Position numbers and translations under genes: made by a program
Notes under the pieces: model-generated
Told to the model about the DNA's origin: nothing
Databases searched by the model: none
The model's input: only the letters and a program-made list of their open reading frames with translations
Assembly (NCBI GenBank): GCA_000934665.2
Contig: JYFJ02003401.1
Coordinates: 1 to 42,320, forward strand
DNA from: Catajapyx aquilonaris
Taxonomy: Eukaryota
DNA length: 42,320 nt
Direction of reading: 5' to 3'
Shown here: in pieces, positions 871 through 37,870 of the stretch
Numbering within the stretch: position 1 is the stretch's first letter
Layout: each line of letters opens with the position of its first letter

Positions 871-1205
871 GGAACGGAGCAAACAGAGGGAACGGAGCAG
901 ACAAAAGGAACGGACTGGACGGAGGGAACGGACTGGACGGAAGGAACGGACTGGAAGGAAGGAACGGAGCAGACAGCTAGGGAACTGACTGGACGGGAGG
1001 AACGAAGCAGACAGAGGGAACGGTGCAGACAGAGGGAACGGACTGGACGGGAGGAACGAAGCAGACAGAGGGAACGGACTAGACAGAGGGAACGGAGCAG
1101 ACAGAGGGAACGGACTGGACGGGAGGAACGAAACAGACAGAGGGAACGGAGCAGACAGAGGGAACGGACTGGACGAGAGGAACGGAGCAGACGGAAGGAA
1201 CGGGA
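871..1205. repeat. Purine-rich minisatellite built from GGAACGGAGCAGACAGAG / GGAACGGACTGGACGG units
   Basis: About 19 alternating ~17-19-bp units seen directly; explains the low-complexity ORFs 628-1230 and 864-1532. Confidence 0.95.
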
Positions 1206-1323
1206 AGCGGGCGTCGGAATGCGGTTCCAAGATGGCCGCTCTGGAAAGTTAATCCAGAGCTGGGTAACCTTCAATGACTTATTCACATGCACCTGACTTG
1301 AATGTTTTGCAGCTTTTATTGCG

Positions 1324-2755
1324 ATGGGTTGCAGCGCTGCAAACTGCACTAACCAAGGCGTAAAAGGCAAGTGTCGCCTTTTCCGGTTCCCTCGAGACGA
1401 GGACGTCAGGGAGAAATGGAAGGTAGCCTGCGGAAGGGGTGACGATAAGTGGGAACCCACTGACGGGAACAGGTTGTGTGAGGTATAGGTTTTTACCAAC
1501 ATATTGGTATTTTGATCGAGTGCTTCGAACAACTAATTGACTGCATTTTTGTAGCTCCATTTCGAAGCCGACGCTTTTGAAAGGAACAGACAGGATGGCA
1601 GGCTGCTATTGAAAAGAGGTGCACTACCAACGTTGTTTAACTTCCCACACCCAGCTGCGCCACAAGTCAAGAGGAAGTTGCCGCAAAAGGTATATGCTGC
1701 AACAGGGAGGTAATGAGTGTAGAAACATGTATTAAGACAGCAGCTGAATTGGACCGCATCGGGACCTAGGCATTTTTGTCCAATAATTAACGTTAAAGTG
1801 TGTAGAACCCCCCCTTCACAATAAGCTGCATGATTTACAAAGAGTCACATACTGTAACATAAAGGAAATGATTGTGTGGGTTTTCTTACAAGGTTAGACA
1901 TGTGAGTGCATGATGTAGAAGACAGGTAGAGAATACTAAGGAAAAAATTCAGAGGGACATTGGGGCCGTGCAGACGGGCCAAGCTTAGCCGCGGCTGGCC
2001 ACGCCCGCGACGGTTCACACCTAGCGGCCCCCTAGCAAGGCCACGGCCAGGCCACGGGCCAACTTCCTGGAAGTTGGCCAGCCGCGGCCAAGCTTTGCCG
2101 TCTGCACGGCCCCAATATGTCTAATGAGTGCAAGGGAAACTTCACCTCAGGCTTGCACAGTGTAGAGTGAGACCAATGAAGGAGAATGTTCTCACATAAG
2201 CTCTTTTTGTCCATTTTAGCGTGCTTTGTTGGCCGATGAAATACATGATCAAGTGGGCAAAAGAAGACTGCTCCAAGGTGACGTGGATGATGGTACGAGT
2301 GGCCATGAAGGCAACACTGCCGCAAATGAACACGTGACAACAGAGGAGCGCCTAAAACAAGAGAATGCCTCGCTGAAGCGACAGTTGCTAAAAGAGAAAA
2401 GAAGACACCGGGTCCTTGCTAATAAGCTATCCGCCATTTTCAATGGAGATCAGATGGCTGTCCTAGCTGGAACTCGTTGCAAGAAGTGGTCCAAAGAAAC
2501 AATGCGTAGGTCACTTCAAATTCGTCTCGCAGTTGGATGTGCTGGTGAGTAGGCTATGTATGGTGTGTCCACTCAGTGTCAACAGCTATAAATACTGTAC
2601 AGATTGTGACAGGGAAACCCATGTTGTGTACGACGAGGTACTGTATGATTTACTTTCCGTCTCTCTCAGGGTATAACACATTGAGAAGGATGGGATATCC
2701 GTTTCCTTCTTACTCGTCAATTTGCAAGAGGTTTTGCACCTCGTGCAGAACATGA
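1324..2755 (+). CDS. THAP-domain protein derived from a P-element (THAP9-type) transposase, internally deleted; exons 1324-1482, 1555-1689, 2220-2544, 2670-2755 (~234 aa)
   Basis: Spliced translation MGCSAANC...FRFP...W...C...W.P....LCE|LHF..........LK.GALPTLF is a C2CH THAP domain with an AVPTxF-like box. It is followed by a coiled coil (ERLKQENASLKRQLL) and the P-transposase motif KWSKETMRRSLQIRLAVGCAG|YNTLRRMGYPFPS. All introns are GT-AG and phase-consistent. Confidence 0.85.
1962..2113. mobile_element. MITE (PIF/Harbinger-like) in THAP gene intron 2
   Basis: TIRs ggggccgtgcagacgg / ccgtctgcacggcccc with an extended palindrome; flanks att / aat. Confidence 0.8.
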
Positions 2756-2876
2756 AGGTCGGTGCTGATGGTGTTTGGAAGCCGTATCGGACTGGCATCA
2801 TATTGACAACTGAGAGCATCGTGACTCGCATTAGAGATCGCTTGGATGAGGGTACAAGTATGTCCTGACTTCCCGA
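2728..2876 (+). pseudogene. Out-of-frame remnant of the late P-element transposase region
   Basis: Alternate frame WKPYRTGIILTTESIVTRIRDRLDEG/YKYVLTSR resembles the KPFQxGI...YLLTxR segment before the catalytic QDxLE motif. It is frameshifted and ends before that motif. Confidence 0.65.
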
Positions 2877-3378
2877 AAGGCGAACATTTGAAACATTGAG
2901 ATAATTCGTTGGCGCTGGCCTTTTTTTTGTTTATCAGTCACTTACATATCGCTGTACGTGCTCATTACACTGGAGAAAACTAGGGTTACGGTTGTTATGG
3001 CTTTAATTTCAAATTCCAAATAAATACAATTTTCAGAGCCGATTTTAACATTCGGCGTACAAGCGTGGGTTCAGACACCTTTATTGCAGTGATTGTCGTA
3101 AGGCACCACGATCCCCCTCAAAGCACGCATTTAACGAACAGTACGTTGGGAAATGCACGAGAAACTAATAGTGGCCTTGAAAACAATGTAACTGATTGTT
3201 TCTAAAAACCAGATTAGTGACAACTTTTAACCGTACCATTCTTTGCCTGGTTACAACTCAACCATTCTTACATTTCAAATCCGTATAGATCAAATGAGCT
3301 TCGCTTCAAGAGCAAACTAATTACAGCCACCCATTACTTTTAAACCTTGATGAGGGCTGTACCTTTTTTTTTTTTGGT

Positions 3379-4962
3379 TCATGTGCAATGGGGAATTCTT
3401 AGTAGCCCGCCATTGGGTCTTGCAGAAATTAGAAGGATGCTGCTGGCAGCCCGGAACTGACTGAGGCCCTCCGAGCTCAGGTCCAAATTGTGGCACATGT
3501 TGAGCTGAAGGTACCGGAGGTTGCGGCATCTCCTCACCAGGTCAAGGAGCGAATCGTTGGTGACCTGGTTGCTTCTCATCAAGCGTAATTGAGTCAGAAG
3601 AGGGCAGTTTGCAGCAATGGCCGATATGCAACCGTTGCTCAGCTCAGTGCAATTAATAAAGCTGATCTTCTCGAGGCCACCAACGATGTTCGGCTGGGAG
3701 AAAAACCGCTTCAGAGATTGTACCATTCTGCCTCTGCACGTCTCCAGGGTCAAACTACGGAGGTTGCGCAGTCTCCCTATCCCGTCATGCAGGCCAGTGT
3801 TGGTCAAGACGGAACAGCCTAGGATATTCAGCTCCTCCAGCTGCAGGAAGTTTGCAAGGAGAAGGAAGGATTCCCGGTTGCGGAAGGAAGAGACAGTGAA
3901 CTTCCTCAGCCGGCTTCCCACACTGCAGGCCAGCACTTCCACTTCCTGGCCAGCACCGTTCATGTAGAGCACCACCTCAGTCAGATTCGGCCAGTTTCTC
4001 TCGGTGAACTCACTCGATGGCGGAGGGAAATCTTCACTACACAGGGTCATCTTTTCCAGCTCTTGGCAGGAACTAAAAATGTCCAGGGGATGTTTCCAGT
4101 AATTCTTGTGACTGTCGAACTCCATCCACACATAGATTTCCCGCAGTTCCCTGCACCTGTGTTATGAAAATAAAATGATGAACTGCCAATAAATGACACT
4201 CTGCTACACCCAGCCTCCTTTACTTACTCTTGTGCAATCAGTTCCAGCGTATCCTGCGACACTGAGGCAGCCACAATTTTGAGACGCTTGAGGTGAAGAA
4301 TGCTATGGGCTACTGCTTCCAGCAGCGAATCACCATCCTCTCTATCCCAATGCCTCAATTGAATTGACTCCAGATAGGCCCTGTTGCTCGTGATCATAGC
4401 CACCGATTCCGCTGCAGTTAAATGGCGGCCATCCAAGGTCGCCTTCTTCCTAAGACCCAGCCACTCCTTGGTTATCCTGTTCCAATCTTGGCACACCAGT
4501 GCGAGACCCTTGTAGATGGACTTGTCCTCCAAGTACGAAAACACCTTTGCCTTCATTTCGTCGGGCAGGTCCGCAAAGGTCTTGACGCTAGCCTGCAATC
4601 GACAATAAATTGCGTATGTAAACACATTTAAAGTACCGACATAATTAGCACTCACCGTTGATTCTACTTGACAATGTTGCTGGTTGCTGCCACTACTCGT
4701 CTTGCCCGCACAAGTCGGCTTCTTGTCTCGTAACTTGGAATCGACCGCTGATTTTCCCTGCACCTCCGAGACACCCAAACCGACAGCAATCTGAAACAAA
4801 AATCGACGGGTCGCAACTGTTAGAAGCACATATAATCATGTAGTCATGCAAATTAATGCGTGAGTACCGACAGTACTGGTGGGGTCACCCCAACGCCATA
4901 CAGACGACACCAACACAGACAAATTTTATTGTATTCTTTACCCTTCTTCATTGTTGTTGTTG

Positions 4963-5018
<56 letters not shown>

Positions 5019-5154
5019 TTTATTAATTTATTATTACCATCCCCCTGCCCACGCCCAGCCTCTTTCTCTTCGTGGCCCTCGTCTCCACGGTGTTCCAACC
5101 CTTCTCCTCAGCCTCCCTCGCCATCCTCTGCCTCTCCATTCCTCGAGTCTCCAT
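3379..5154 (-). CDS. F-box/LRR protein copy 1; exons 5154-5038, 4790-4656, 4592-4228, 4156-3379
   Basis: F-box LPDEMKAKVFSYL...LALVCQDW plus cysteine-containing LRRs (CPLLTQLRL, CRNLRYLQLNMC). Splice sites are phase-consistent; the exon-1 donor is inferred (ATG|gtaata). Confidence 0.85.
4951..5036. repeat. (TTG)n(TTA)n microsatellite inside the ancestral exon 1 of copy 1
   Basis: Seen directly; absent from paralogous exon 1 sequences. Confidence 0.95.
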
Positions 5155-5264
5155 CGTTCTCCCCTCAACAGAACAAACGTGTCGCAACAATCAACCGAGG
5201 GTTCGAACCGAGGCAACAAAGAAAAGGAATTTCATCAGAGGGACCCGACGAAATTTCGACCGTT

Positions 5265-5548
5265 TCCATTGTGGGCGGCCATATTGGAATCCAAAACAAC
5301 CTGTTGCCAGATTTCGTTCGTCCTTTCGATAACTAACGGAATCATTTTAACCCGACCAATAGTGCAATCGTACAAGTAATTTAATATAATTGCACATTGC
5401 ATGAATTAACTGTTGCTCGATTACTTTATTAGCAAGAAGAATGTGGTTGGCTGCGTCCGGATTTCTGGTGACGCACCCACCGGTTGCGTCCGAATAAACA
5501 GAGGGAACGGACCAGAAACGACGGTAGGAATGCGCCCAAGATGGCGCT
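5265..5548. promoter_or_regulatory. Conserved promoter cassette (copy 1)
   Basis: ccattgtgggcggccatatt ... gctgcgtccggatt..gtgacg..ggttgcgtccgaat..ggaacggacc..cgacgg..ggaatgcgcccaagatggcg; recurs upstream of most array genes. Confidence 0.75.
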
Positions 5549-6007: not shown

Positions 6008-7761
6008 CTAGGAATCAATGGCAGGTGCGTATATTTTAAGAGTGCTTCTCACGGCCTGGAACTGACCAAGGGCCTCAGCGCTCCGGTCCAACTTGCGGCA
6101 AGCGAAGAACTGAAGGTTCCGAAGATTGCGGCATCTCCTCACCAGGTCTAGGAGCGCATTGTTGGTGACCTTGTTGGTTTCCACCAAGCACAAATGAGTC
6201 AGAAGAGGGCAGTTCATGGCAATGGCCGATATGCAACCGTTGTCAAGAGTTAAGCAATGATGGATGCTGAGCTTCTCAAGGCCACGGACCACGTTTGGCT
6301 GGGAAAAAAACCTCTTCAGAGCTTGTGCCATGCAGGGGTGGAACCTAACCAGGGTCAAGCTACGGAGGTTGCGCAGACTCCCCATCCCGTCTTGCAGGTC
6401 AGCTTCAGTTAGGAAGACACAGCCTGGGATATCCAGCTCCTCCAGCTGCGGGAAGCATGCGATGAGACGAAAGGACTCCGAATTAACCATGGAAGAAATC
6501 GCCAGTTTCCTCAGCCAGCCTCCCACACTGCGGGCGAGCACTTCCACTTCCCTGTCAGATCTGGCTCCGAAAAGCGTTACATCAGTGAGTTTTGGCCAGT
6601 TTCTCGCGGCGATCTCTTTCGATGGCGGCGGGAACTTCCGATCATGTATGGTCATCGTTTCTAACTCTTGACAGGAACTTAAAATGTCCAGGGGATTCTT
6701 CGAGTAATTCTGGTACAAGCTGAAGTTTCTCAGGTAGATGTACCGCAATTTGCTGCACCTGTGTTGTAATAATGAACATAAGTAAATAACACTTCGCACA
6801 CACTATGTCAACCCTCCTTCACTTACCTTTGTGCGATCAGTTCCAGCATATTCTGTGACAGGGAGGCATCAGCAATACTGAGACTCTCAATATGGGAAAG
6901 TCTCTCGGCTACTACTGTCAGCAGCAAATTAGCTTTCGCTTTATTCCAGTGCGTGAAGGTAGCTGCCTTCAGACGGGTCCTGTTCCTCCTTATCATAATT
7001 ATTGATTCCTCCAGAGTCAAATGCTGGCCATCCAATGTGATGTTCCTCCTGAGACCTAGCCACTCCGTGGCAACCCTGCGCCAATCTTTGCACACCAGTG
7101 CGAGGCTCTTACGAAGCAATTTGTCCTGCAGGTACGAGAACACCTCCGCCATCATTTCGTCAGGCAGGCTGGCAAAAGTCTTGCTGCTAGCCTGCAATTA
7201 TCAACAAAATGCCTCAGCAGGATACAGGGAGTTTCCGAATTCAGCCGATAAACTTGTAGGGGTCATAGCCAAGACCAAGAGTTATTAGCTCTTGGGCAGC
7301 CCTGTTACCAAGGTAATTAGCTTCATGTCATCCCCCCACTCACCGTCGCTTCTACTTGACAAGGTTGCTGGTCTCCACTCGTCTCAGCTGCACGAGTCAC
7401 GCGAGACTGCTTCTTGTCACGAATCATGGAATCGGCCACCGATTCTCCTGGTGTCACCTTGATCTCCGATACACCACCACCAACCTGAAACAAAATCAAA
7501 GGGTTGCAACTGTAAGAAGCAGTCATGCAAAAAATTAATTGCAATTATACAGTACTGGTGCGGTCACCCCAAAGCCATACAGATGACACCAACAATAATT
7601 TCCATTTTATTTTTCACCTCTTTCCATGGCTTCTCCTCTTCCAGCCCCCTGCACAACTCGACCCTCCTTCTCTTCGTGGCCCTCGTCTCCACGGTGTTCC
7701 AACCCTTCTCTTCGGCCTCCCTCAGCATCCCCACTCTCCTCATCCTTCTGGTCTCCATCAT
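6008..7761 (-). CDS. F-box/LRR protein copy 2; exons 7761-7618, 7484-7344, 7191-6827, 6758-6008
   Basis: Same four-exon plan; F-box LPDEMMAEVFSYL..LALVCKDW; open LRR exon. Confidence 0.9.
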
Positions 7762-7925: not shown

Positions 7926-8220
7926 TTCCATTGCTGGCGGCCATCTTGGATTCGCTCAACATACACCGTTGCCAGATTTCTCATCTCGAACTACAACCGG
8001 CCCCTCGATTAAACCGGACAATTAGCACAATCACGCAAGTTATTTGATACAATTGCATTTTTTTGGGTGTATCGCATATTAACGGTTGCTCGCTACTTTT
8101 ATCAGCAAAATTTAAGAATATTGTCGGATGCGTCCGGATTTGTTTTGTGGTTGCGTCTAAATTTATGTAACGTAAGGAACGGACCTAAGGCGACGGCCAG
8201 AACGCACCCAAGATGGCGCT
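7926..8220. promoter_or_regulatory. Conserved promoter cassette (copy 2)
   Basis: ggcggccatctt ... gcgtccggatt ... ggaacggacc ... gaacgcacccaagatggcg. Confidence 0.75.
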
Positions 8221-9137: not shown

Positions 9138-10860
9138 CTAGGGTGCAACGGCAGGTGCATCAATTTGGAGCGTGCTTCTCACGGCCTGGAACTGACCAAG
9201 GGCCTCAGTGCTCAGGTCCAACCTGTGGCAAGAGAAGAGACCAAGGTTCCGGAGATTGCGGCATCTCCTCACCAGGTCTAGGAGCGCGTCGTTGGTGACC
9301 TCGTGGGTTTCCACCAAGCATAAATCAGTCAGGAGGGGGCAGTTCAAGGCAATGGCCGATATGCAACTGTTGTCAAGAGTTGGGCAATGACAGATGCTGA
9401 GCTTCTCAAGGCCACGGACCACGTTCGGCTTGGAAAAAAACCTCTTCAGAGCTTGCGCCATGCAGGACTGGAAGATAATCAGGGTCAAGCGGCGGAGGTG
9501 ACGCAGTCTCCCGATCCCGTCTTGCAGGCCAGCTTCAGTTAGGAAGAAACAGCATAGGATTTCCAGCTGCTCCAGCTGAGGGAAGCATGCAATGAGATGG
9601 AAGGACTCCGAATTAACCATGGAATAAATCGTGAGTTTCCTCAGCCAGCCTCCCACGCTCTGGGCGAGCACTTCCACTTCCCTGTCAGCGTTGGCTCCAA
9701 AAAGCTTTACATCAGTGAGTTTTGGCCAGTTTCTCGCGGTGATCTCTTTCGATGGTGGAGGGAATTGCCGATCATTTATGGTTATCGTTTCGAGTTCTTT
9801 ACAGGAACTTAAAATGTCCAGGGGATTCTTCGAGTAGTTCTGGTACAAGCAGAAGTTTCTCAGGGAGATGACCCGCAATTTGCCGCACCTGTGTTGTAAG
9901 AATGAATATTTAAGTAGATAACACTTAGCACACACTATATCGACCCTCCTTCACTTACCTTTGTGCAATCAGTTCCAGCATATTCTGTGACAGGGAGGCT
10001 TTGAAAACACTGAGACTCTCAATATGAGAAAGTCTCTCGGCTACTACTTTCAGCAGCAAATTAGCTTTCGCTTTATTCCAGTGCCTGAAGATCACCCCTT
10101 TCAGACGGGTCCTGTTCCTCCTTATCATGATTACTGATTCCTCCAGAGTCAAATGCTGGCCATCCAATGTGATGTTCCTCCTGACACCAAGCCACTCCGT
10201 GGCAACCCTGCGCCAGTCTTTGCACACCAGTGTGAGGCTCTTACGAAGCGATTTGTCCTGCAGGTACGAGAATACCTCCGCCATCATTTCGTCAGGCAGG
10301 CTGGCAAAAGTCTTGCTGCTAGCCTGCAATTATCAACAAAATGCCTAAGCAGGATACAGGGAGTTTCTGAATTCAGCCGACAAACTTGTAGGGGTAATAA
10401 CCAAGACCAAGAGTTATTAGCTCTTGGGCAGCCCTCATCCCCCCACTCACCGTCGCTTCTACTTGACAACGTTGCTGGTCTCCACTCGTCTCAGCTGCAC
10501 GAGTCACGCGAGACTGCTTCTTGTCACGAATCATGGAATCGGCCACCGATTTTCCTGGTGTCACCTTGATCTCCGAGACACCACCACCAACCTGAAACAA
10601 AATCAAAGGGTTGCAACTGTAAGAAGCAGTCATGCAAAAAATTAATTGCAATTGTTCTTTACACCCCAAAGCCATACATATGACACCAACAAGAATTTTG
10701 GATTTCATTTTTTCACCTCTTTCCATGGCTTCTCCTCGTCCATCCCCCTGCACAACTCGACCCTCCTTCTCTTCGTGGCCCTCGTCTCCACAGTGTTCCA
10801 ACCCTTCTCTTCGGCCTCCCTCAGCATCCCCAGTCTCCTCGTCCTTCTGGTCTCCATCAT
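9138..10860 (-). CDS. F-box/LRR protein copy 3 (recent duplicate of copy 2); exons 10860-10717, 10591-10451, 10323-9959, 9888-9138
   Basis: Introns and flanks nearly identical to copy 2; all exons open and phase-consistent. Confidence 0.9.
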
Positions 10861-11022: not shown

Positions 11023-11310
11023 TCCATTGCCGGCGGCCATCTTGGATTCGCTCAACATACACTGTTGCCAGATTTCTCAGCTCGAACTATAACCGGCCCC
11101 CGATTAAACCCGACAATTAGTAAAATCACGCAAATTATTTGATACAGTTGAATTATTGTACATTACAAATATTAACGGTTGCTCGTTACTTTAATTAGCA
11201 AAATTGAATATTGTCGGATGCGTCCGGATTTGTTTTGTGGTTGCGTCTAAATAGATGTAACATAAGGAACGGACCTAAAGCGACGGCCAGAACGCACCCA
11301 AGATGGCGCT
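11023..11310. promoter_or_regulatory. Conserved promoter cassette (copy 3)
   Basis: Same motif order as 7926-8220. Confidence 0.75.
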
Positions 11311-11814: not shown

Positions 11815-13996
11815 TTAGGATATGACGTTGTAACTGCGGGTGATACGCCCAACTCGTGGCTTGAAGCGGGGTTCTGCAGAAATTTGGAGGGTGCTGCTCG
11901 CTGCCTGGAACTGATCCAGGGCCTCTGCGCTCCTGTCCAGCTTGCGGCACCAGTTGAGCTCGAGGTACCGCAGGTTGTGGCATCTCCTCACCAGGTCAAG
12001 GAGCGAATCGTTGGTGACCTCTTGGCATTCCTCCAGTGAAAAGTGAGTCAGAAGAGGGCAGTTCGCAGAAATGGCCGATACACAATTGTCGTCCACTGTT
12101 GAGCAACCATACAAACGGAGCCTCTCAAGGCTACCCATGACATTTGGCTTAGAGAAAAAGCTCTGCAGACCTTGTGCGGTGCAACTTAGTGCAGTGCAGT
12201 AGTGGAACTTTACCAGGGTAAGGCTACGGAGGTTGTGCAGTCTCCCGATCCCATCGTGCAGCCCAGTGTCAGTCAAGTAGAAACAGGATCGGATTTTCAG
12301 CTCCTCCAGCTGCGGGAAGTGTGCGAGGAGAAGGAAGGACTCCCGGTTGATGAAGGAATCGATGCTGAGCTTCTTCAGCTGCCTCCCAAGAGTGCAGGCC
12401 AACAATTCTACTTCCCTGTCAGCAGCGAGAAATGATGCATCGACGAGTTTCGGCCAGTTTTCCCCAGTGCCCTGGGGTGATGGTGGAGGCAAACCTTGTC
12501 CATAAATGGTCATCTTTTCTAGCTCTTGGCAGGAACTCAAAATGTCTAGGGGATGCTTTGAGTAATGCTGACACCAGCGGAAGTTTCTTAGGTAGATTTC
12601 CTGCAGTTCGCTGCACCTGTGTCATAAAAATAAAAGTAATGACACTTAACGCACCATATCGACCTTCCTTTACTTACTCATGCGCAATCAGTTCCAGCAT
12701 GTTCTGTGACACTGAGGTATCCCAAACACAGAGACGCTTCAGGTGAGGAAGATTATTGGCTACTACTTTCAGCAGCGAATCAGCATCCTCTCCATTCCAG
12801 TCCATCAACGTAACCGACTTCAAATGGGTCCTGTAGCTCACGATCGCATGCACCGATTCCTCCAGAGTCAAACCCCGGTGGTCCAACTGCATGTTCTTCC
12901 TAAGACCCAGCCACTCCTTGGCCACATTGCACCAATCCTTGCACACCAGTGCGACTGTACAGAGCGATTTCACATCCAGGTACGAGAACACTTTTGCCTT
13001 CATCTCATCAGGCAGGCCGGCAAAGGTCTTGACGCTAGCCTGTAATTGTCAGCAAATTGGTTCAGTGTGTAGATATACAGGGTGATTAGTTAAACAACAA
13101 AAAAGTTTGATCACCCTGTATACGTATATATGAACAATCACCATTTTTAAGTACAGGTATTGAGTACGTTGCTAAACTCAGCGGCTGTCAGGCTCGCTGA
13201 TAGGTCAATCTTCACTGAGGGCCGTTTTCTCGAACAGTGGTTCAAATGTAAACCCGGTTCAAAGCCGGTTTAAACCCTTGACAACAGCCTAACAACAATC
13301 AAATCAGGGATTAAACTGGCTTTGAACCCGGTTTACATTTGAACCACTGTTCGAGAAAACGGCCCTGAATTCAACAACGTTTTCGCTGCCTAGTTCTGCT
13401 ATTCCAAGATGGCCACCATTTGCCGGCGCCCTACGCGAAAGCCGCTTCGCCTAGCAACCCGTGTTGAATGAACCAACAACGATGCGCTCAACCGCTTCCG
13501 TCGCTGTGGCAGCGGCCGAGTTTAGCAACGTACTCATTGCGAGTCTCAGCAGTCCAGTAACCTGAAATAATTAGCTTCTTGTGATCCCACACTCACCGTT
13601 GTATCTACTTCACAATGCGGTTTGCTGCCTCCACTGGACTGGGCGGCGGGAGTCACACGAGCCCGCTTCTTGTCATGACCCTTGGAATAGGCCATTGCTT
13701 TTCCTGGCGTCTTCACCTGCACCTCGGACACACCCAACCCGCCAGCAATCTGAAACAAAATCAAAGTGTAACAAATGCAGCCATGTAAAATAGTAACAAT
13801 GGTTCCGGGCAAAAGTAGTTGTGCGGTCACTCAAAGGCCATACAGATGACATATTATTTTTCACCTTTTTCCATGGCTTCCCCTGACCCCGGAACAACTC
13901 GACCCTCTTCCTCTTCATGGCCCTCGTCTCCACCGTGTTCCAGCTCTTCTCCTCAGCCTCCCTCAGCCTCCTCATCCTCCTTGTCTCAATCATCAT
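11815..13996 (-). CDS. F-box/LRR protein copy 4; exons 13996-13865, 13749-13597, 13039-12678, 12616-11815
   Basis: F-box LPDEMKAKVFSYL..VALVCKDW; LRR exon open; intron 2 enlarged by MITEs. Confidence 0.9.
13078..13118. mobile_element. 41-bp Tc1/mariner-type mini element
   Basis: TA|cagggtgat ... atcaccctg|TA. Confidence 0.7.
13162..13535. mobile_element. MITE with 3-bp TSD (ATT), PIF/Harbinger-like
   Basis: TIRs gagtacgttgctaaactc / gagtttagcaacgtactc; ATT on both sides; empty site ggtattgtgagtctc in the paralogous intron at ~16575. Confidence 0.9.
13219..13365. mobile_element. Nested Harbinger-type MITE
   Basis: Long TIRs gggccgttttctcgaacagtggttcaaatgtaaac / gtttacatttgaaccactgttcgagaaaacggccc; TSD TGA. 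Confidence 0.9.
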
Positions 13997-14160: not shown

Positions 14161-14460
14161 TTCCATTGTCGGCGGCCATATTGGATTTCCATTCGGCTAC
14201 ACTGTTGTCACATTTCCAATTCGAACGGACTTGGTAAACCCACAGAAAATAGCGCTATCGTACTGTACAAGTCATATAATGTAATTTTATTTTCATACAC
14301 AGCATCAATTAAAAATGGTTGCGCCAATTACTTCATTAGCTAAAAAATTATCGGCAGCGTCCGGATTTTGTGTGACGTACTATTGGTTGCGTCCGAATAT
14401 GAGCGGAGGGAACGGACCGGAAAACGACGGTCGGAACGCACCCAAGATGGCGCCGCAACA
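14161..14460. promoter_or_regulatory. Conserved promoter cassette (copy 4)
   Basis: ttccattgtcggcggccatatt ... ggaacgcacccaagatggcgccgc. Confidence 0.75.
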
Positions 14461-17185: not shown

Positions 17186-17295
17186 CGGGTTGCGTCCGGA
17201 TATCGAGTGACGCGTGTTTCGGTTGCGTCCGAATATGAGCAGAAGGAACGGACCGGACACGACGGTCGGAACGCACCCAAGATGGCGACGCAACA
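17186..17295. promoter_or_regulatory. Promoter cassette core (copy 5; left YY1-like arm lost)
   Basis: gttgcgtccggat..gtgacg..gttgcgtccgaat..ggaacggaccgg..ggaacgcacccaagatggcg. Confidence 0.7.
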
Positions 17296-19956: not shown

Positions 19957-20068
19957 TCGGGTTGCGTCCGGATATCGAGTGACGCGTCTTTCGGTTGCGT
20001 CCGAATATGAGCAGAAGGAACGGACCGGACGCGACGGTGGGAACGCACCCAAGATGGCGCCGCAACAA
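19957..20068. promoter_or_regulatory. Promoter cassette core (copy 6)
   Basis: Near-identical to 17186-17295. Confidence 0.7.
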
Positions 20069-21745: not shown

Positions 21746-21757
21746 CATCTCTCTGGA

Positions 21758-21809
21758 GGACCTCAGAGGTGGAAGGCTGTGGCGCTAACCACTCCGCCAC
21801 CGTGTCGCC
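21758..21809 (-). mobile_element. tRNA-derived SINE head fragment
   Basis: Minus strand ggcgacacggtggcggagtggttagcgccacagccttccacctctgaggtcc contains an A box; same family as the 36.5-36.9 kb SINE. Confidence 0.75.
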
Positions 21810-21832
21810 ATAGGGGAGAGCCTGTCATCCCC

Positions 21833-22001: not shown

Positions 22002-22019
22002 ATTCATACTGCTAACATG

Positions 22020-25600: not shown

Positions 25601-28472
25601 ATGTAACTACATACAGATGCTCCTTCTCTCCTTGTAATAATTTTGTTCGGACCACTTGCCCGCTCGATTGATGTATCTGCTGCAGTGGCAAGACCTGCTT
25701 CGTAGCAGTCCAAGACTTCAGAAGCAGCAGCCTAGGAAATGAAATAATGTGTCTGGAACTCTGGATCATAAACTACTGCAAAAGGCCCAGCGGTATGGCA
25801 CCCACACAACCAAGTTAAAAGATATCAGTTATCAGAATGTTTCATGTGCAAGATATCCACCCACTAGACTAGAGAATTAAGAAAGCATCCAATATGTTGC
25901 CGGAAAGTTACTCACAGTAGCTTCTCTGGTCACCCTTTCACTTCGGACTCTTGCTGGTTCACGTGAGGGGCTACTTAACACTGAAGGTGCCTGATTATCC
26001 TCTGCTCGCCCTCCATCATCTGAGACTCCAACTCCACCAATCTGGGATAATAAGTAAAATAATGTGGCACAAAAAACACACTAAATGCGCAAAGGGTCAT
26101 TATTCCTTAAAAAGGGGGAACAAGTCCCATTTGTTCCTTACCATATTATTTACAGCAGGATCTTTCCCCCTCTTTCCCCTTCTCTTTGAGCCACTGGCTG
26201 AGCCGCATGGAGAGCCATTTGCTTCCCATTCCAAGATTTCAGTTGCAGTGATCTAGAATACGAAACAATAATTAAATTGGCATAAGATCACAAGTTATTG
26301 AGACATGACGAATTTTCCCTGCTAATTTTGGAACACCATCTATCATAGCTGTGCAGTGCCTTTCAAACTTTGTTGTTGATGATTAGCAACACTGCACATG
26401 TTTACTTGTTCCCCCCCCCCCCTCTCATTACACTTCAAAATTACGGCAGATTTAACATAATCTCAAGTACATGGAACCTATACAGGGTGAAGGGAAACTC
26501 GCAGTTGGTGCCTAAACTTCCAGAATAGAGGGGTGTCCGACTTCCAGCTAATGTGCCCATACATATTGATAGGCTTTTCCACGGTTCCAGAAAAATTGTC
26601 CAACAACAGGAGTTTTACATTATTAGTTTTGCGAGTACTATAAGTGTACCTGGTGATTGTACGCAAGTTTCCCTTCACCATGTATGTACCACAAGGATTG
26701 ACACAGCTGCACATCCATTGCCAACCAAATTACATCAAAAGCATTTCACCTGCATAGTAGAGTTTAAATTGATTCCAAGTTCAGGTTGAGGATCTCCCTC
26801 AGTTCGTTCGGCGACTCCATCTGCATCTTCACACTGGACGTCTCCCTCACCTGAAAGATCATCATGAGTGTTTTCTTGTACATCTGTATACACAATGTAA
26901 TCAATTTGTATTTTTCTAAAATTAAGGTGTATTAGTTCAACAAGGGTGCAAACAGTGACATTCCAAAAAATATACGCAAACGTGTCAGTCATTAGGCACT
27001 GTAATGGCTCCAATAAAAAATTTCTGATTATATCATGTTACCACACCACAACTTCAATATGCAGTACTTCTACTGTTCGTGGTGGTGGGGTTTGCGTTTC
27101 TCCCATGACCCCAAGAGCTATACCGGCGGTAGCTTCGTCTACTGGTAGGGCCACCCAAGCCGGACAGGTCTTTGGGATAGGAGACAGACTAAGAGAGATG
27201 CCAGTCTTTCCTCTCTTCTTTTTCCTCTTCGTTTCTCCCTCCATCTGTCCCACCTTTGCTTCTTCTTACAGCCAGATAGCCACAGTTGCTTTGGCTTCTT
27301 CCAAATAAACCAACTAAACCAAACTTCTACTGTACTAATATCAAACAATAGTTCTAGGTTCAACAAAATACATGGTAAAAAGAATTGAAAAATAGCACAG
27401 CTTGACTTGCTCAATGCGGCTCAGACTCAGCAGATGTGCATCTGTGTGTGTGCCACATTATCAGTTAGGCAAGTGATACTAATCACAGAAACAGTGTAAT
27501 TAAAAAGGCCCATATTAGCTAACAATCACAATGCAATGCATGATATGCCTGCATTGAAATACTCTGAACATGAGAGCCAATGTTCTGCTCAAAGTGCCTG
27601 GCACACTACGAATGACACTGACTGTGAGCAGTTCGGTATTTCTCACTCACCAAGCCTTTCATTGATAAATACATAATAATGCATAAAGACATACTTGCGC
27701 TTGAAGAACTTCCATTTGGAGGGTCGTTGTAGCCAATCAGAGCAATAATTTCTCTGATATTCTCTGCAGTCTGAGCCTCCAAATTTTGTGTCTGATATTC
27801 CTGTAGGATGTGGAAAAACATGATGAATTCCTCGAATCATGGTATGATGGCATAATCTCCTACATATGAGTAATGTTCTCCTATTGTAATGCTCTTTGCT
27901 CTGATAAACATATGATAAACAGTGCAGCAATGTTGAAACCCAAACAACATTAATTAATGCATTTCCATTGAAACATAAGTGACAGATTTTGAGTACCTAG
28001 CCTCTGAGCCATCATGAACCAGTTCCATCGACATTTCAGTTGAACTCTCCAGCAGCACTACAGTTATCCCAAGCACCCCACATATTTCATGACCGGCTTC
28101 TCCACTAGTTAACCTTACCCATCTGCCCTGCACTCCTTCCATCCCGATCATCATCTGCTCCACCTTGAACTGGTCCGCTTCAACTTTGACAGCCGTGGTA
28201 AGCCCACCAGGTTCACTTTCAGCAAGGCCAGTCGTAATACATTGGTCTGACGGATGGTGGTTGGGAACCGCATCAGTAGCTAACAAAGGAAAACATTTCA
28301 AGTCACACACATGACGCTTTCTCATTGGGTCCATATACTACTCACGCTGATGATTCCTGATGAGCCACTCTTCCAGCATGCCCATGACCCCGTCCCACTT
28401 GTCCCAACGAGCAAAGAAGCCCTCCAAACAGCCCCTGACTGATCTCAGCAGCTCCCTGTCCTCAGAGTCCAT
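22660..28472 (-). CDS. C14orf93/DUF4616-like protein, ~600 aa, 12 coding exons: 28472-28346, 28279-28119, 27800-27695, 26883-26750, 26252-26142, 26041-25916, 25731-25438, 25142-25011, 24782-24715, 24506-24406, 23411-23302, 22992-22660
   Basis: All introns GT-AG; phases chain to 1803 nt without a stop. The C-terminus AVRTYYKTL..R..R...YMSSEES..VKQLPW....F..LD....R...S.RPPP..P.WA resembles the C14orf93-family domain; the N-terminal half is low-complexity. The 5' exons are less certain than the 3' ones. Confidence 0.7.
23600..23886 (+). mobile_element. LINE ORF1 coiled-coil fragment in intron
   Basis: VKEKVNEMEQRWSGKTTELEREVRQLRKETEEMRWEREAT*KKLIELEDQ resembles the heptads before the LEDxSRR motif of LINE ORF1; contains stops. 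Confidence 0.5.
23969..24306 (+). mobile_element. Full-length tRNA-derived SINE with 15-bp TSD
   Basis: A box tggcgccgcggt, B box ggttcgatcc, (att)n tail; TSD aagtgggcacttggt at 23954-23968 and 24307-24321. Confidence 0.92.
27072..27203 (+). mobile_element. RTE-clade retrotransposon 5'-UTR-derived fragment
   Basis: cgtggtggtggggtttgcgt...atgacc..agagctat...gtagggccacccaagccggacaggtc matches the conserved 5' UTR of RTE/BovB/Expander-type elements. Confidence 0.7.
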
Positions 28473-28667: not shown

Positions 28668-28971
28668 CCATTGTCGGCGGCCATCTTTGATTAATCTTCC
28701 ACACCGTTGCCAGATTGCGCCAATTCGAACTAACGGGACAGTAACGGACAGAGTAAAAAGCAGATCAAACACGTTGTGTAATACAACAGCATTTGCTGTG
28801 TACATTACATTAATTAATTGCTCGTTAGATTAGCACTATAATAATAATTATTGAAGAATGTTGCGTCCGGATTTTTTGAGTGACTTGTCCCGTGGTTGCA
28901 TCCGAATATGAGCAGAAGGAACGGACCGGAAGCGGCGGTCGGAACGCACCCAAGATGGCCGCCGACAATGG
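28668..28971. promoter_or_regulatory. Promoter cassette upstream of the C14orf93-like gene, with a perfect 20-bp terminal inverted repeat
   Basis: ccattgtcggcggccatctt (28668-28687) and aagatggccgccgacaatgg (28952-28971) flank the same core as in the F-box copies. Confidence 0.8.
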
Positions 28972-30638: not shown

Positions 30639-32406
30639 TTACCAAAACATGGAATACCAGCCAGTGATGGGAAATAGAGAAATTCGGAGCTTGTCACTGG
30701 CCGCCTGCAACTGACGCAGGGCCACCGCTCTCCCGTCCACCCTGCCGCACCAGTTGAGCTCAAGGTGCTGGAGGTTGTGGCACCTCCTCACCAGGTCTAG
30801 GAGCGAGGCGTTGCGGACCTTTTGGTTTCTCACCAAGCAGAAATGAGTCAGGAGAGGGCAGTTCATGGCAATGGCTGAGATGCAACCATTGTCCAGGGTT
30901 TGGCAATAAGAAAGGCTGAGCTTCTCCAGGCGGCCAACTATGTTTGGCTTGGAGAAAAAGCTCTTCAGAGGTTGTGCCATGCACCAGCGAAACTTTGCCA
31001 GGGTCAGGCTACGGAGGTTGTGCAGTCTTCCGATCCCATCCTGAAGGTGAGTGTCAGTCAAGATGGTACAGTCTTGGATATTCAGCTCCTCCAGCAGTGG
31101 GAAGCGTGCGAGGAGAAGGAAGGACTCCGGGTTGACGAAGCAATTAAACTTCAGCTTACTCAGCCGGCCCCCCACACTGCAGGCCAAAACTTCTACTTCC
31201 TTGTCAGCATTGTCCATGAGAAGCGACACGCTGGTGAGATTCGGCCAATTTTGCCCAGTGAACTCGCTTGATGGCGGAGGGAAACTTCCAGCACCTATGG
31301 TTATCTCTTCTAGCTCCTGGCAGGAACTCAAAATGTCCAAGGGATGCTTTGAATAAACGTCTTTCCAGTTGAACATACTCAGGCAGATGCTCCTCAGTGC
31401 ACTGCACCTGGGTCGTAAAAATAGAAGTAAGGAACTGGCCATAAACGACACTTAACTTGCCTCCTTTACTTACTCCTGTGCGATCAGTTCCAGCATATTC
31501 TGCGCCACATTGGTATCCTGAACACTGAGATGCTTCAGGTGAGGAAGCTTCTCCGCTACTACCTCCAGCAGCGAATCAACCTTCACTCTCTTCCAGTCCA
31601 TAAGAGTAAGTGACTCCAGATGGGTCATGTTGTCCACGATCACCTGCACTGATTCCTCCAGAGTCAGAAGGTGGGCATCCAAGACCATCTTCTTCCTGAG
31701 ACCCATCCACTCCTTGGCCACCCTGCACCAATCTTTGCATACCAGTGTGAGGGTCATATGGATGGTTTTATCATCCAGGTACGAGAACACCTTTGCCTTC
31801 ATCTCATCGGGCAGGCTGACAAATGTCTTGAAGCTATCCTGCAATTGTCAGGAAAATGCTTAAGTATGTAAACAAGTAATGATCACTTTAAGTGCCGGTA
31901 ATGTGAGTCTCTGCAGCCCAGTCACTAGATAATTAGCTTCATGTCATCCCGCACTCACCGTCGCTTCTACTTGACAATCTTGTTTGCCGTCTCCCTTCGT
32001 CTCGGCTGCATAAGCCAAGGAGGATTCCTTCTCGTCACGAATCATGGAATCGGCCGCTGATTGTCCTGGTGTCTTGGCCTCCACCTCCGAGGCACCCAAC
32101 CCACCAGCAATCTGAAACAAAATTAGTGTAAAAGATGGTCGCACATGTAATCATGCGGTCCCGTAAAAATTAATGTGGCAGTTCCATGCAAAATTATTGG
32201 CTGATGGTCACCACTGGTGCGGTCACCCAAAAGCCATGCAGATGACACAAACTAAAACTTTGATTTAATTTCACCTTTCCCCGTGGCTCCTCTTTTTCTT
32301 CCTCCACCCCCCTGCCCATGTCCACCCTCCTTCTCTTCATGCCCCTCGTCTCCACAGTCTTCCTTCCCTTCTCCTCGGCCTCCCTCGGCGTCCTTCTAGT
32401 CTCCAT
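30639..32406 (-). CDS. F-box/LRR protein copy 9; exons 32406-32275, 32111-31959, 31838-31474, 31407-30639
   Basis: All exons open and phase-consistent; F-box LPDEMKAKVFSYL..LTLVCKDW. Confidence 0.9.
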
Positions 32407-32497
32407 CAGAGAACAACGGGTGGCAACAACCGACCGAAGATTCGAAAGGCAACAAAATAGGTTCAGCGGAGGACATGAAATTCGAACTTTTTTTTTT

Positions 32498-32783
32498 TTG
32501 TCGGCGGCCATCTTGGATTATTTCAACGCCATGTTGCCATATTTCCCTCATTCGAACAGACGAATCTATAGTTATAAAGTCGACAAATAGTGAAATCATA
32601 CAAGATATTGAACACAATCGCATTTTCTGTACATTACATACATTAATTATTGCATATTATTTAGCAAAAAAATGGAAGAAATATAGGTTGCGTCCGGATT
32701 TGGAGTGACGCGTTCGCACGTGGTTGCGTCCGAATCGATGTAACTGATGGAACGGACTGGAAGCGACAACCGGAACGCACCCA
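32498..32783. promoter_or_regulatory. Promoter cassette (copy 9; right YY1-like motif lost)
   Basis: ttgtcggcggccatcttgg ... gttgcgtccggatt..gtgacg..gttgcgtccgaat..ggaacggactgg..ggaacgcaccc. Confidence 0.7.
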
Positions 32784-34195: not shown

Positions 34196-36537
34196 TACAT
34201 CGGCATGAAAATTATGGCTATGGTCTAAGGTTATAGCAGGGGAACGCAGGCTCAAAATTTTTCGGGATGCATAAACTGTTTCCTGCAGCAGCCGGTGGCC
34301 AGACCGGGAACCTCCCACAAACCACCCCCTCAGGAGGGCTACGTCACCGCGTGCAATCACTCCGGTAGCATGCGCGCAGGCTTCTACCAGCATAGAGGTC
34401 CAGGCGGCCAACTTTGTTTGGCTTGGAGAACAAGCTCCTCAGAGGTTGTAACATGCACCAGCGAAACTTTGCCAGGGTCAGGCTACGGAGGTTGTGCAGT
34501 CTTCCGATCCCATTCTGAAGGTGAGTGTCAGTCAAGATGGTACAGTCTTGGATATTCAGCTCCTCCAGCAGTGGGAAGCGTGCGAGGAGAAGGAAGGACT
34601 TCGGGTTGACGAAGCAATTAAACGTCAGCTTACTCAGCCGCCTCCCCACGCTGCGGGCCAAAACTTCTACTTCCTTGTCAGCATTGTCCATGAGAAGCGA
34701 CACGCTGGTGAGATTCGGCCAGTTTTGCCTAGTGAACTTGCTTGATGGCGGAGGGAAACTTCCAACACCTATGGTTATCTCTTCTAGCTCCTGGCAGGAA
34801 CTCAAAATGTCCAAGGGATGCTTTGAGTAAACGTCTTTCCAGTTGAACATACTCAGGCAGATGCTCCTCAGTGCACTGCACCTGTGTCGTAAAAATAAAA
34901 GTAATGAACTGGCCATAAGTGACACTTAACTTGCCTCCTTTACTTACTCCTGTACGATCAGTTCCAGCATATTCTGTGCCACATTGGTATCCTGAACACT
35001 GAGACGCTTCAGGTGAGGAAGCTTCTCCGCTACTACCTCCAGCAGCGAATCAACCTTCGCTCTCTGCCAGTCCGTCAGAGTAAGTGACTCCAGATGGGTC
35101 ATGTTGTCCACGATCACCTGCACTGATTCCTCCAGAGTCAGAAGGTGGGCATCCAAGACCATCTTCTTCCTGAGACCCAGCCACTCCTTGGCCACCCTGG
35201 ACCAATCTTGGCAAACCAGTGTGGTCATATGGATGGTTTCCTCCTCCAGGTACGAGAACACCTTTGCCTTCATCTCATCGGGCAGGTTGGCAAATGTCTT
35301 GGCGCTAGCCTGCAATTGTCAAGAAAATGCTCAAGTATGCAAACAAGTATTGCATAAGCCCTGATCATTTTAAGTACATGTGTCGTGCGTCTCTGCTGCC
35401 CAATTACCGAGATAATTAGCTCATCGTCATCCTGCACTCACTGTTGCTTCTCCTTTACAATGTTGGCTGCTATCTCCATTCGCCTTGGCTGCAAGCGACA
35501 CACAAAACTGCTTCTCGTCACTGATCTTGGCATCGGCCACTGATTTTCCCGCCATCTGCGCCTGCACCCCCGAGACACCCATGCCACCAGCAATCTGAAA
35601 CAAAATGAAACCGTAACAAACCAAACTCAGGATTGCATCTGCACATACACAAAACAAGTGACAACAAAGGACCACTTTATCATGTATTAATTTAAATTAA
35701 CCCATAGTTTAAGCAATTATTACTTTTTCTCATTGAAAAAAAGGCTCATGGAACGGCCCTGTCCATCTGTGTGTGGACAGGTATCAGGGCCTGAACAGCA
35801 TAAGATAGCGACAAACATTTTTTGGATTCAGCTGACCCTAAATTAGGTTTCATGGACAACATCCTGTGCCCGGCCACATCCGATTTTACTGAGCCCACTC
35901 CATCCACCAAGGTCAAGTCTACATGCTTTAGGCCAGTATCTTCGACGTCTCATGCAAACCTTGCGACGGCCCCGGGTCCGCCCTAGCTAGCTCATACCAA
36001 GCAAACTCGGGGTTCCTGGAGCACTGGTTTTTATTGACCTTCTGGGTCCCAAGCTGCTTGAGTACAGACTGGCCCTTGTTAGGTCTCCCCTCCATCGGAG
36101 CCCCCGCAAGCGGCTATCAGCGATTATGTCACCCTGGAATCAACTGACCTGGCATGGCAGAGAGGAATCTTATGGCCTCGCTCTGGACATTTGACCCCAG
36201 GCATGGGTGGCACTTTAAGTTAACCGCCCCCGCCTACGTGGCCAAATCCGGCGTACAGCCCATTGACACCTTGCCTGCCCACCTTGCGGTCCTCAAAACC
36301 AGGACAACGACGCTGCCGAATTGGCACGCCAAAATAAACCTCGGCTGCTCCATCAACCGACACCACGTCTTGAACCCCAGTAGTAGTTAATTTTGTTACT
36401 TAAAAATGTGATACTCTCCCTGGCAGAACCCTGTCAACTCCCTTCTGCGAGCGCCTCCCGCAGGTTTGCGAGAGATGAAGATTACGGCCTTAGAGGTTGC
36501 TGGGCAACGAGAAATGAGGCTGACAACACTCTACGTC

Positions 36538-36597
<60 letters not shown>

Positions 36598-36935
36598 GAT
36601 ACCCCGTGATAGGCCTCCATGGTCCTCTTAGGGCATCATCTTTTAAATACCCAAACTTTAATAATTTCCTGCGCTGTGATGGATTTTGATGGCGGGGGAA
36701 ACGAGAGAACCCCGAGAAAACCCACGTGAACACGGAGAGAACCCATCGAAACTCTATCCACAGAAGTATCCTCCGTCTGACCCAGGGATCGAACTCGGGA
36801 CCTCAGAGGTGGAAGGCAAATCACATGCAAGCGTGATTCGAGTAGACCTTTCCTCGTTGCCAAGGAAATTCAAATTATTGGACAACTATGACAGAGTGAG
36901 GGCGGCATGGTGGCAGAGTGGTTAGCGCCGCAGCT
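36538..36935 (-). mobile_element. tRNA-derived SINE (V/Meta-SINE-like central domain) with (ATT)n tail and rearranged head
   Basis: Minus strand: B box gagttcgatccc, central cgtgggttttctcggggttctctcgtttccccc, (att)~19 tail. The A-box head appears inverted at 36900-36935. Confidence 0.8.
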
Positions 36936-37027
36936 AACCACTCCGCCCTGTCATAGTTGTCCAATAATTTGAATTCCCTTGGCAACGAGGAAAGGTCTAC
37001 TTGAATCACGCTTGCGTGTGATTTGCC
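36815..37027. repeat. 80-bp inverted repeat with an inner hairpin
   Basis: 36815-36894 is the near-perfect reverse complement of 36948-37027. Confidence 0.92.
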
Positions 37028-37777
37028 AATCTATAGCATTAAAGTGCTTGCGGTGTGTGCGTATAAGCCATCTGATTGGGCCACCGCATATTGTTACCGC
37101 CACCTCCCCATTGGCCCGCCATCGTGTGCCACGGGGGTGTAAACAACTCCTGGGTCGCCGGCGATACTGTCCATTCCTTTCTCTGTATTGTTGCCCGGTC
37201 GGCACTACTGTGAAGTTGCGAATAGTGTCGTTGGTCTCAGCGGGTCGTGCAGATACAGGAAGTAATGTTCAGAGACCTTTTAATGTAAATTTGGTATTTT
37301 TATTTTTTCAAATTAATTTTTGATTAATTTTCACCTTTCTCCATGGCTTCTCCTCTTCCTCCTTCACCCCCCTGCAGCTGCCCATGCCCTCCTCCTTCAT
37401 CCTCTTCGTGGTGGCCCGTGTCTCATCCACAGTGTTCCAACCCTCCTCCTCCTCCTCCTGGGCTTCTCTCTTCATCTTTCCAGTCTCCATCATCATCCAG
37501 TGCTGTCCTCCAAACAATCAAAGCCGCAACCGAATTGTACGGGGCTCCCCGAAAGAATAAAAAAATTAAAAATCAAGATAAATATTTTCGGCGTGGCGTC
37601 CCTTCCCGAAATTCCCGAACAACATGTTGCCAGGTTCACTATTTCGAACGGACGTAAACCAGACATGTTATTTTTAATACGAATGTATTTTTTTCTACTT
37701 TTACATATTATAATATTAGCCCGTTGCTCATTTTTTACATCATTAGTAAAATTATTATTTAAAAATAAGAATGCTCT

Positions 37778-37870
37778 CGGCTGCGTCCGGATTTGGAGTG
37801 ACGTCCCTGGTTGCGTCCGAATAGAAGTAACAGAAGGAACGGACTGGGAGCGACGGCCGGAACGCACCCA
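37778..37870. promoter_or_regulatory. Promoter cassette core (copy 10)
   Basis: gctgcgtccggatttggagtgacgt..gttgcgtccgaat..ggaacggactgg..ggaacgcaccc; both YY1-like arms degenerate. Confidence 0.65.

Follow-up and report, generated by a model that had tools for sequence, protein, structure and literature searches.

A tandem array of genes for F-box/leucine-rich repeat (LRR) proteins occupies about 3.2 to 40.6 kb of a stretch of 42,320 nucleotides from Catajapyx aquilonaris (contig JYFJ02003401.1, positions 1 to 42,320; here called the window), which is eukaryotic DNA carrying spliced genes. Every copy lies on the minus strand, as judged by blastn of the repeated unit against the window and by tblastn. 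A noncoding cassette of about 95 bp stands upstream of eight of these F-box genes and of one gene of another kind (which runs leftwards from 28470), and part of it recurs in rearranged form upstream of a neighboring gene that encodes a THAP-domain protein. On balance, we consider it probable that the cassette belongs to a conserved divergent promoter module of an old, fast-evolving F-box array, that it was inherited by duplication, and that the THAP gene is a transposase relic lying behind a rearranged copy of it. Our confidence is greater for the promoter module taken by itself than for the account as a whole.

Word order and conservation of the cassette

The word GCGTCCGGAT was found nine times, always on the plus strand (at 5453, 8130, 11220, 14357, 17192, 19964, 28863, 32690, and 37783). 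Shuffled sequence gave an expectation of 0.02, and none of 100 shuffles reached nine. In every copy the words GGTTGCGTC(C/T)(G/A)AAT, GGAACGGAC, CGRCGG, and GGAA(C/T)GC(A/G)CCC come after it in a constant order, which bears out the nine copies with a shared word order reported in a preliminary description of this DNA. That description also placed AAGATGGC in seven copies and GTGACG in most; we count 7/9 for the former, which comes next in all copies except those at 32690 and 37783, and 6/9 for the latter. The start positions given there were right for three copies (17186, 19957, and 37778), whereas the remaining six (5265, 7926, 11023, 14161, 28668, and 32498) lie about 190 bp too far to the left and point to a separate, minus-facing CCAAGATGGCCGCC box. 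The claim that the cassette precedes nine genes of the array likewise holds in part. Eight are F-box genes, but the ninth is not, and one F-box copy with open exons (38910-40636) as well as three F-box fragments have no cassette. With the array genes on the minus strand and the AAGATGGC of the cassette facing the plus strand, cassette and gene are arranged head to head.

From GGAACGGAC to the last word there are 23 nt in eight copies and 24 nt in one, and the linkers between invariant words vary both in sequence and in length (21-34 nt between the first two words). Such an alternation of invariant words with variable linkers is the pattern of a binding-site footprint and not that of a conversion tract.

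A nine-way alignment of the 500-bp spacers (501 positions) was used to compare the cassette with its surroundings; identities are medians over the 36 pairs. Pairwise identity within the cassette was 0.79 (range, 0.72-0.96), and the 86 cassette positions hold 46 of the 76 invariant columns. Outside the cassette, the DNA on its left (between the conserved blocks) had an identity of 0.53, that on its right 0.40, and the exon-1 side 0.44, values that are low in part because indel-rich DNA aligns poorly. For the last coding exon of eight paralogues, the median identities were 0.58 for protein, 0.72 for DNA, and 0.70 for four-fold degenerate sites. These figures indicate that the array is old and that the cassette has been better kept than silent sites. 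A metagenome scan with the 19-nt end of the cassette returned seven loci, all in contigs of 55-66% GC and none with another cassette word, and we therefore regard these matches as chance.

The putative promoter interval

A second conserved block is found about 190 bp to the left of the cassette, in the leader of the F-box gene. Its minus-strand sequence is CCAAGATGGCCGCCGACAATGG, with CCAATATGG instead in two units. Together with the box at the end of the cassette, this minus-facing box forms a mirror pair in six of the nine units, with 263-279 nt between the two; in unit 7 the arms (28668-28687 and 28952-28971) make a perfect 20-nt inverted repeat. The sequence CCAAGATGGC occurs 12 times in the window against 0.13 expected, with seven occurrences at cassette ends, three in minus-facing boxes, one upstream of the THAP gene, and one in an intronic repeat. 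Located 15-35 nt inside the minus-facing box is a further element, block B, which a strict pattern detects in six of the nine units (at 7963, 11059, 14199, 17028, 19801, and 28701). Its minus-strand reading, CAACAGTGT, is one that we take to be initiator-like. Strict pattern searching also placed a TTGCTCG..TTAGCAA element between the boxes in seven of the nine units.

The ratio of observed to expected CpG is 0.65 for the window and 1.23-1.76 for the nine cassettes. Out of about 843 windows of 200 bp, the 25 richest in CpG are all in or just to the left of cassettes and span seven of the nine units, so that the interval of about 280 bp closed by the cassette is the most CpG-rich DNA of the window. 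A conserved footprint within such DNA agrees with the promoter role proposed for the cassette in the preliminary description. We conclude that each spacer is a small CpG-rich putative promoter, of which the cassette is the best-conserved portion.

The boxes resemble a known class of core promoter element. Yarden et al. (2009, PMC2715227) give GSCGCCATYTTG as the strict initiator (sINR), which about 1.5% of human promoters carry between -10 and +5. By eye, the cassette-end box read on the minus strand matches this human consensus at 12 of 12 positions in units with GGCGCCATCTTG, and the minus-facing box read on the plus strand matches the same human consensus at 11 of 12.

The region upstream of the THAP gene

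The 5' region of the THAP gene had been described as akin to the cassette, and the alignment supports this. Positions 1185-1239 match 28910-28962 at 80% identity over 55 nt (blastn within the window, E value of 4e-7). None of 1,000 shuffles reached this alignment score, and 1 of 1,000 did so once the AAGATGGC part had been removed. The proposed match between the adjoining minisatellite and cassette words was also upheld. Positions 881-901 agree with 5496-5516 at 95% over 21 nt, and the second unit type, GGAACGGACTGGACGGGA, matches the cassette center at 20017-20034 in 16 of 18 positions (by eye). TRF describes the repeat as having a period of 18, 18.4 copies, and 73% matches. The 9-mer GGAACGGAC occurs 16 times in the 42 kb, where 0.17 would be expected. 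Seven of these occurrences are in the minisatellite and nine are in the cassettes, with none elsewhere, and the minisatellite junction CAGAG-GGAACGGAC reproduces the cassette's own flank.

The copy in front of the THAP gene is a derived one. It lacks the 5' half of the cassette and has the expanded minisatellite and extra substitutions. It has AAGCGG and GATGGCCGC in common with the copy at 28863 and GGAATGCG in common with the copy at 5453. The presence of a 3' half only, its derived form, and states held in common with particular array copies indicate a rearranged member of the cassette family and not its source or archetype.

An alternative is that this region and the cassette are unrelated by descent, being ordinary promoters of this genome that share motifs in common use (a YY1/initiator box and GGAACG-type sites). 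That such motifs can turn up independently is suggested by the CCAAGATGGC in the intronic repeat (13404) and by a near-copy, CCAAAATGGTGG, at 811-822 before the left neighbor gene; moreover, such boxes are common in human core promoters (PMC2715227). The likeness nevertheless exceeds the box, as the shuffles scored without it demonstrate. Order and spacing are colinear over the 55 nt, the 9-mer is confined to the minisatellite and the cassettes, and the CAGAG flank is the same in both. We therefore consider independent origin unlikely, though it is the best placed of the alternatives.

The THAP gene

The THAP gene is predicted to have four exons and to encode 234 amino acids (Table 1). Exons 1 and 2 make up the THAP domain (Pfam THAP, 8.2e-9 for exon 1, with the match carried on into exon 2), with the ligands C3, C8, C52, and H55. 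The protein goes on with a coiled-coil-like stretch and the start of a helix-turn-helix region. A HMMER search of 1.84 billion proteins with exon 3 gave seven matches at an E value of 1e-3 or below (best, 2.2e-6), and in four of the seven, the matched stretch leads directly into PF21787 (TNP-like RNase H N-terminal domain). The colinear match of exons 3 and 4 to P/THAP9-type proteins extends to position 2734, where the likeness ends a few residues before PF21787 would start. The frame closes seven codons past that point, and the truncation falls within the helix-turn-helix region. No catalytic (RNase H-like) domain was found elsewhere in the window by tblastn with six P-like proteins. The neighboring gene was thus correctly described as derived from a P/THAP9-type transposase and as having no catalytic domain. 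Other searches were less informative: Pfam searches with single exons of the gene gave no P-transposase family, exon 3 gave nothing meaningful in a PDB sequence search and no match in a word-indexed protein search, and a protein atlas gave for exon 3 leads below 0.9 only, to clusters with Tnp_P_element. Judged by its sequence, the gene is a truncated relic or a domesticated form of such a transposase. Array homology resumes at about 2932, just past the end of the relic, and the homology end at 2734 thus puts the truncation at the array's left edge.

Several small features were noted in and around this gene. Intron 2 holds a palindromic insertion (1959-2116) with arms of 19-25 nt that are 92-100% complementary. 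In the leader (1241-1323), the palindrome CTCTGGA..TCCAGAG, with 7-nt arms, comes directly after the box, and a candidate 48-nt intron recognized by eye, from GTAACC at 1264 to TTTTGCAG at 1311, would remove three upstream ATGs. A distance of 570 bp, filled by the minisatellite, separates the start codon of the left neighbor (754, minus strand) from that of the THAP gene (1324, plus strand).

The preliminary description went further and derived the array's promoter from the end of a P element. In its fuller form, the proposal is that the cassette came from the 5' subterminal region and promoter of a P-type transposon and that a truncated, KP-like THAP protein binds the GGAACGGA words and controls the F-box array. 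The true P/THAP9 descent of the gene speaks for it, as do the intact set of zinc-finger ligands and the dimerizing region in a protein with no catalytic domain, and so does the restriction of GGAACGGAC to the cassettes and to the 18-unit array that immediately precedes the THAP gene. In PMC7776569, moreover, P transposase is described as binding internal sites near the element ends, and KP as binding multiple sites as a dimer. Other observations speak against the proposal. The 17 inverted pairs detected in 1-3500 include none that encloses the THAP gene, so that the terminal inverted repeats that had been sought around it were not found, and the strong pairs among them are two small palindromic insertions. 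What stands upstream of the gene is half a cassette in a rearranged version, with states common to the copy at 28863, and no THAP coding remnant lies behind any of the nine array cassettes (blastn, tblastx, and tblastn). The words also do not appear to fit the THAP-site consensus (TxxGGGCA type). Finally, the best-matching part of the region is a box of a type described from ordinary human core promoters (PMC2715227). An origin of the promoter in a P-element end is accordingly very unlikely. We give equally little credence to the 234-amino-acid protein as a regulator that would recognize GGAACGGAC, and perhaps GCGTCCGGAT, present 18-fold before its own gene and once or twice before each array member, in a module that may descend from a transposon end. 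If true, it would mean that one transposon-derived DNA binder is wired to itself and to a whole array of E3 adaptors.

The F-box/LRR array and its transcripts

The first array gene, G1, has an uninterrupted model of 463 amino acids. Its Pfam F-box-like match (5.1e-8) is above the cut-off, and LRR families score below their cut-offs only. The closest relatives in the protein collection are distant, with three matches, the best of them at 31% to dynein regulatory complex subunit 6 (FBXL13-type). In the last exons of eight copies (3382-39791), protein identity is below that of four-fold sites, indicating that replacement and silent changes have about the same frequency, a pattern suggestive of diversifying or relaxed selection on the LRR part of the F-box copies.

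Splicing was followed in two sequencing runs. The kind of run X5 is not on record, and it behaves like RNA-derived contigs; X1 is a DNA run. The X5 contigs skip 68-152 nt with CT..AC ends at three listed joints (in G2 and G3), and they also join 4154 to 4226 in G1. None of the X5 joints was present in X1. The joints in X5, their absence from X1, and the CT..AC ends establish minus-strand splicing of G1, G2, and G3. Minus-strand spliced contigs were thus obtained for these three genes, and no plus-strand transcript was seen from the nine array cassettes; beside the partial copy at the left, it is the THAP gene that occupies the plus side. X5 coverage of the cassette bins is little or none, and no X5 joint is listed for a THAP intron; we draw nothing from either.

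The gene at 22660-28470 uses the F-box type of promoter interval, with the minus-facing box, block B, and cassette 7. Its eight exon-like open reading frames matched no Pfam family at cut-off. A gene that is not an F-box gene behind the same interval implies that the promoter was reused with a different coding body. The exons of this gene are acidic and serine-rich. An F-box exon fragment was noted at 21639-21794.

Other features of the window

To the left of the minisatellite, 628-870 on the minus strand holds the first coding exon of an unrelated neighbor, with a start codon at 754 and a donor near 641, the point at which an X5 contig diverges from the window sequence. The box CCACCATTTTGG at 811-822, about 60 nt before this ATG, matches the strict-initiator core at 9 of 10 positions on the minus strand, and two GGGCGGAGC words come after it. 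There is no minus-strand ATG in the 488 nt from 1241 down to the ATG of this gene.

The intron of G4 contains (13160-13545) a palindromic element resembling a miniature inverted-repeat transposable element (MITE), at 13219-13368, nested in a second element with inverted ends of about 24 nt. DNA-run depth here is hundreds of times the baseline, which marks these elements as high-copy repeats. At 13402, the outer of the two has TTCCAAGATGGCC, a string of 13 nt that is also present upstream of the THAP gene. Another palindromic insertion (150-363) has arms of 15-21 nt that are 79-93% complementary. By eye, 23960-24100 and 21770-21810 have the tRNA-derived look of short interspersed elements, with a GGTTCGATCCC-type box B, and ARAGORN calls no tRNA there. 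A 33-bp tandem repeat (42107-42320; 6.5 copies, 92% matches) is cut off by the right end of the window.

Table 1. Cassettes, boxes, and genes located in the window
Feature	Position	Strand	Remarks
Cassette 1	5453..5548	+	With plus-facing CCAAGATGGC box; upstream of G1
Cassette 2	8130..8220	+	With box, without GTGACG; upstream of G2
Cassette 3	11220..11310	+	With box, without GTGACG; upstream of G3
Cassette 4	14357..14454	+	With box; upstream of G4
Cassette 5	17192..17289	+	With box; upstream of G5; unit without minus-facing box
Cassette 6	19964..20061	+	With box; upstream of G6; unit without minus-facing box
Cassette 7	28863..28971	+	With box; upstream of the non-F-box gene; 28952-28971 is a perfect inverted copy of 28668-28687
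Cassette 8	32690..32782	+	Without plus-facing box; upstream of G8
Cassette 9	37783..37869	+	Neither box; upstream of first-exon-like piece 37388-37458 (F-box body 34398-35594)
Partial tenth cassette copy, 3' half only	1185..1241	+	Ends in TTCCAAGATGGCCGC; 83 nt upstream of the THAP start codon
Minisatellite	871..1203	+	18 units of 18 bp, each from GGAAC; unit types GGAACGGAGCAGACAGAG, GGAACGGACTGGACGGGA
Minus-facing box, variant with CCAATATGGCCGCC	5274..5285	-	Unit 1, leader of G1
Minus-facing box CCAAGATGGCCGCC	7936..7947	-	Unit 2
Minus-facing box	11032..11043	-	Unit 3
Minus-facing box, ATATGG variant	14171..14182	-	Unit 4
Minus-facing box	28668..28687	-	Unit 7; arm of the 20-nt perfect inverted repeat
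Minus-facing box	32503..32514	-	Unit 8
Block B, representative (ACACTGTTGNCANATT on the plus strand)	14199..14214	-	GTTG, CA, and TT columns invariant in 9/9 units
THAP gene, 234 aa	1324..2755	+	Exons 1324-1482, 1555-1689, 2220-2545, 2671-2755; stop 2753-2755
F-box/LRR gene G1	3382..5154	-	Exons 5154-5038, 4790-4656, 4592-4226, 4154-3382
F-box/LRR gene G2	6008..7758	-	tblastn; X5 joints 6756>6825, 7190>7343, CT..AC ends
F-box/LRR gene G3	9138..10857	-	tblastn; X5 joint 9886>9957, CT..AC ends
F-box/LRR gene G4	11815..13990	-	tblastn; nested MITE-like elements inside intron
F-box/LRR gene G5	15381..16877	-	tblastn
F-box/LRR gene G6	18304..19714	-	tblastn
F-box/LRR gene G8	30639..32406	-	tblastn
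F-box/LRR copy with long first intron	34344..37458	-	Body 34398-35594; first-exon-like piece 37388-37458
Multi-exon gene behind cassette 7, no known family	22660..28470	-	First coding exon 28338-28470; from open reading frames

Discussion

On the account that we favor, the ancestral unit of the array would have had a CpG-rich promoter interval of about 280 bp, which every array unit would have inherited. The interval would be bounded by two mirror-image YY1/strict-initiator boxes (CCAAGATGGCSGCC), one toward the F-box gene and one closing the cassette. Between them would stand, in fixed order and spacing, GCGTCCGGAT, GGTTGCGTC, GGAACGGAC, 23 nt, and GGAACGCACCC, and then the TTGCTCG..TTAGCAA element and block B. 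The invariant words may be the binding sites of one or a few sequence-specific factors, which would place the paralogues under common control, and the two boxes are candidates for two core promoters with opposite directions. The transposase relic is, in the simplest reading, transcribed from a captured copy of the array's promoter and probably driven by it; that the array took its promoter from a transposon would be less simple than the reverse. P elements insert preferentially around promoters (PMC7776569).

The polarity of the boxes bears on this account. In the sense orientation, AAGATGGCGGC is a downstream YY1 site. A literature search for this string gave no paper containing it among the matches listed. 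If the boxes are downstream-type YY1 sites, the two core promoters may fire outward, with the F-box transcript starting on block B, about 20 nt before the box. The cassette, then at about -150 to -250 relative to the F-box gene, may serve as the proximal promoter of an upstream antisense unit. Upstream ATGs number 6-10 counted from the cassette-end box and 3-4 from the minus-facing box, which leans slightly toward outward firing and is not decisive.

Several points weigh against the account of a divergent promoter module. Box polarity is ambiguous from the sequence, and if the boxes are strict initiators, the cassette-end box may start the F-box transcript, with the cassette as transcribed leader. 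The margin between the cassette (0.79) and four-fold sites (0.70) is modest, the contrast with the flanks is partly due to their poor alignment, and local gene conversion may have contributed to the likeness of the cassettes. A cassette is missing from one F-box copy with open exons, and both boxes are missing from unit 9. As for which way the transfer between array and THAP gene went, the argument is one from parsimony, which is not proof.

A stronger form of the conversion argument is that the cassette was kept by local gene conversion, or formed part of a mobile element of about 300 bp with inverted ends that stood before the ancestral gene, and that it now serves no function. Arrays tend to undergo conversion, and two pairs of units here are nearly identical throughout; the perfect inverted repeat of unit 7, with weaker mirror arms in five other units, would suit an element. 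Conversion, however, would not be confined to one 95-bp stretch in all nine units and yet allow the inner linkers to vary. No target-site duplication was seen by eye beside the mirror arms, and the CpG excess argues for an active, unmethylated promoter. This possibility strikes us as quite improbable, on a par with the P-element end. That the cassette is a small structured RNA gene, as its partly complementary first and last words (TGCGTCCGG and CCGGAACGCA) and the predicted stem might suggest, hardly merits consideration, with no Rfam match at gathering scores and no ARAGORN tRNA in the window, a compensatory change in 1 of 19 predicted pairs, a covariation term of -0.22 kcal/mol, and paired columns that are simply invariant.

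Parts of this arrangement have counterparts elsewhere. Lineage-specific, fast-evolving tandem F-box arrays are known from nematodes and plants. Like these, the present array consists of tandem F-box/LRR copies, with protein identity (0.58) below that of four-fold sites (0.70); unlike them, it has a single noncoding module kept across the copies. As in the TATA-less core promoters with sINR/YY1 boxes described in PMC2715227, the boxes here lie in CpG-rich DNA with no TATA box. In contrast to the human sINR, they form a mirror pair 263-279 nt apart, the host is not a vertebrate as far as could be judged, and binding by a YY1/Pho homologue is putative.

The THAP gene has features that we take to be those of P neogenes, namely, the lack of terminal repeats and a fixed place. 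A literature search for P neogenes in tandem arrays found nothing useful. Stationary P-derived "neogenes" are discussed in PMC3698922 with reference to Quesneville 2005 and Pinsker 2001. An N-terminal THAP domain and a dimerizing region without a catalytic domain also characterize the KP and 66-kDa repressors of the Drosophila P element (Ghanim, Rio and Teixeira 2020, PMC7776569). What sets the gene described here apart from KP and from the neogenes is the position of its truncation, within the helix-turn-helix region, and its location next to an F-box array and behind a copy of the promoter module of that array; it may be maintained or decaying. A further parallel is the head-to-head pair THAP9/THAP9-AS1, for which a bidirectional promoter is predicted (PMC9326536), and where a P-derived THAP gene is likewise on one side of a putative two-way promoter. 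Human THAP9 keeps the whole transposase, whereas here the spacer is filled by a minisatellite made from a promoter word of the neighboring array.

The finding is a well-documented conserved promoter module together with a transposase relic, both of known kinds, and a transposon-built regulon is not demonstrated. Its interest lies in the clean natural footprint that it offers, in which nine old paralogues have diverged nearly everywhere except in four short words of fixed spacing. These words point to a factor, or factors, that may co-regulate a fast-evolving family of ubiquitin-ligase adaptors. The THAP relic behind an expanded cassette word would in turn serve as a test case for whether host promoters recruit transposase relics or relics supply promoters.

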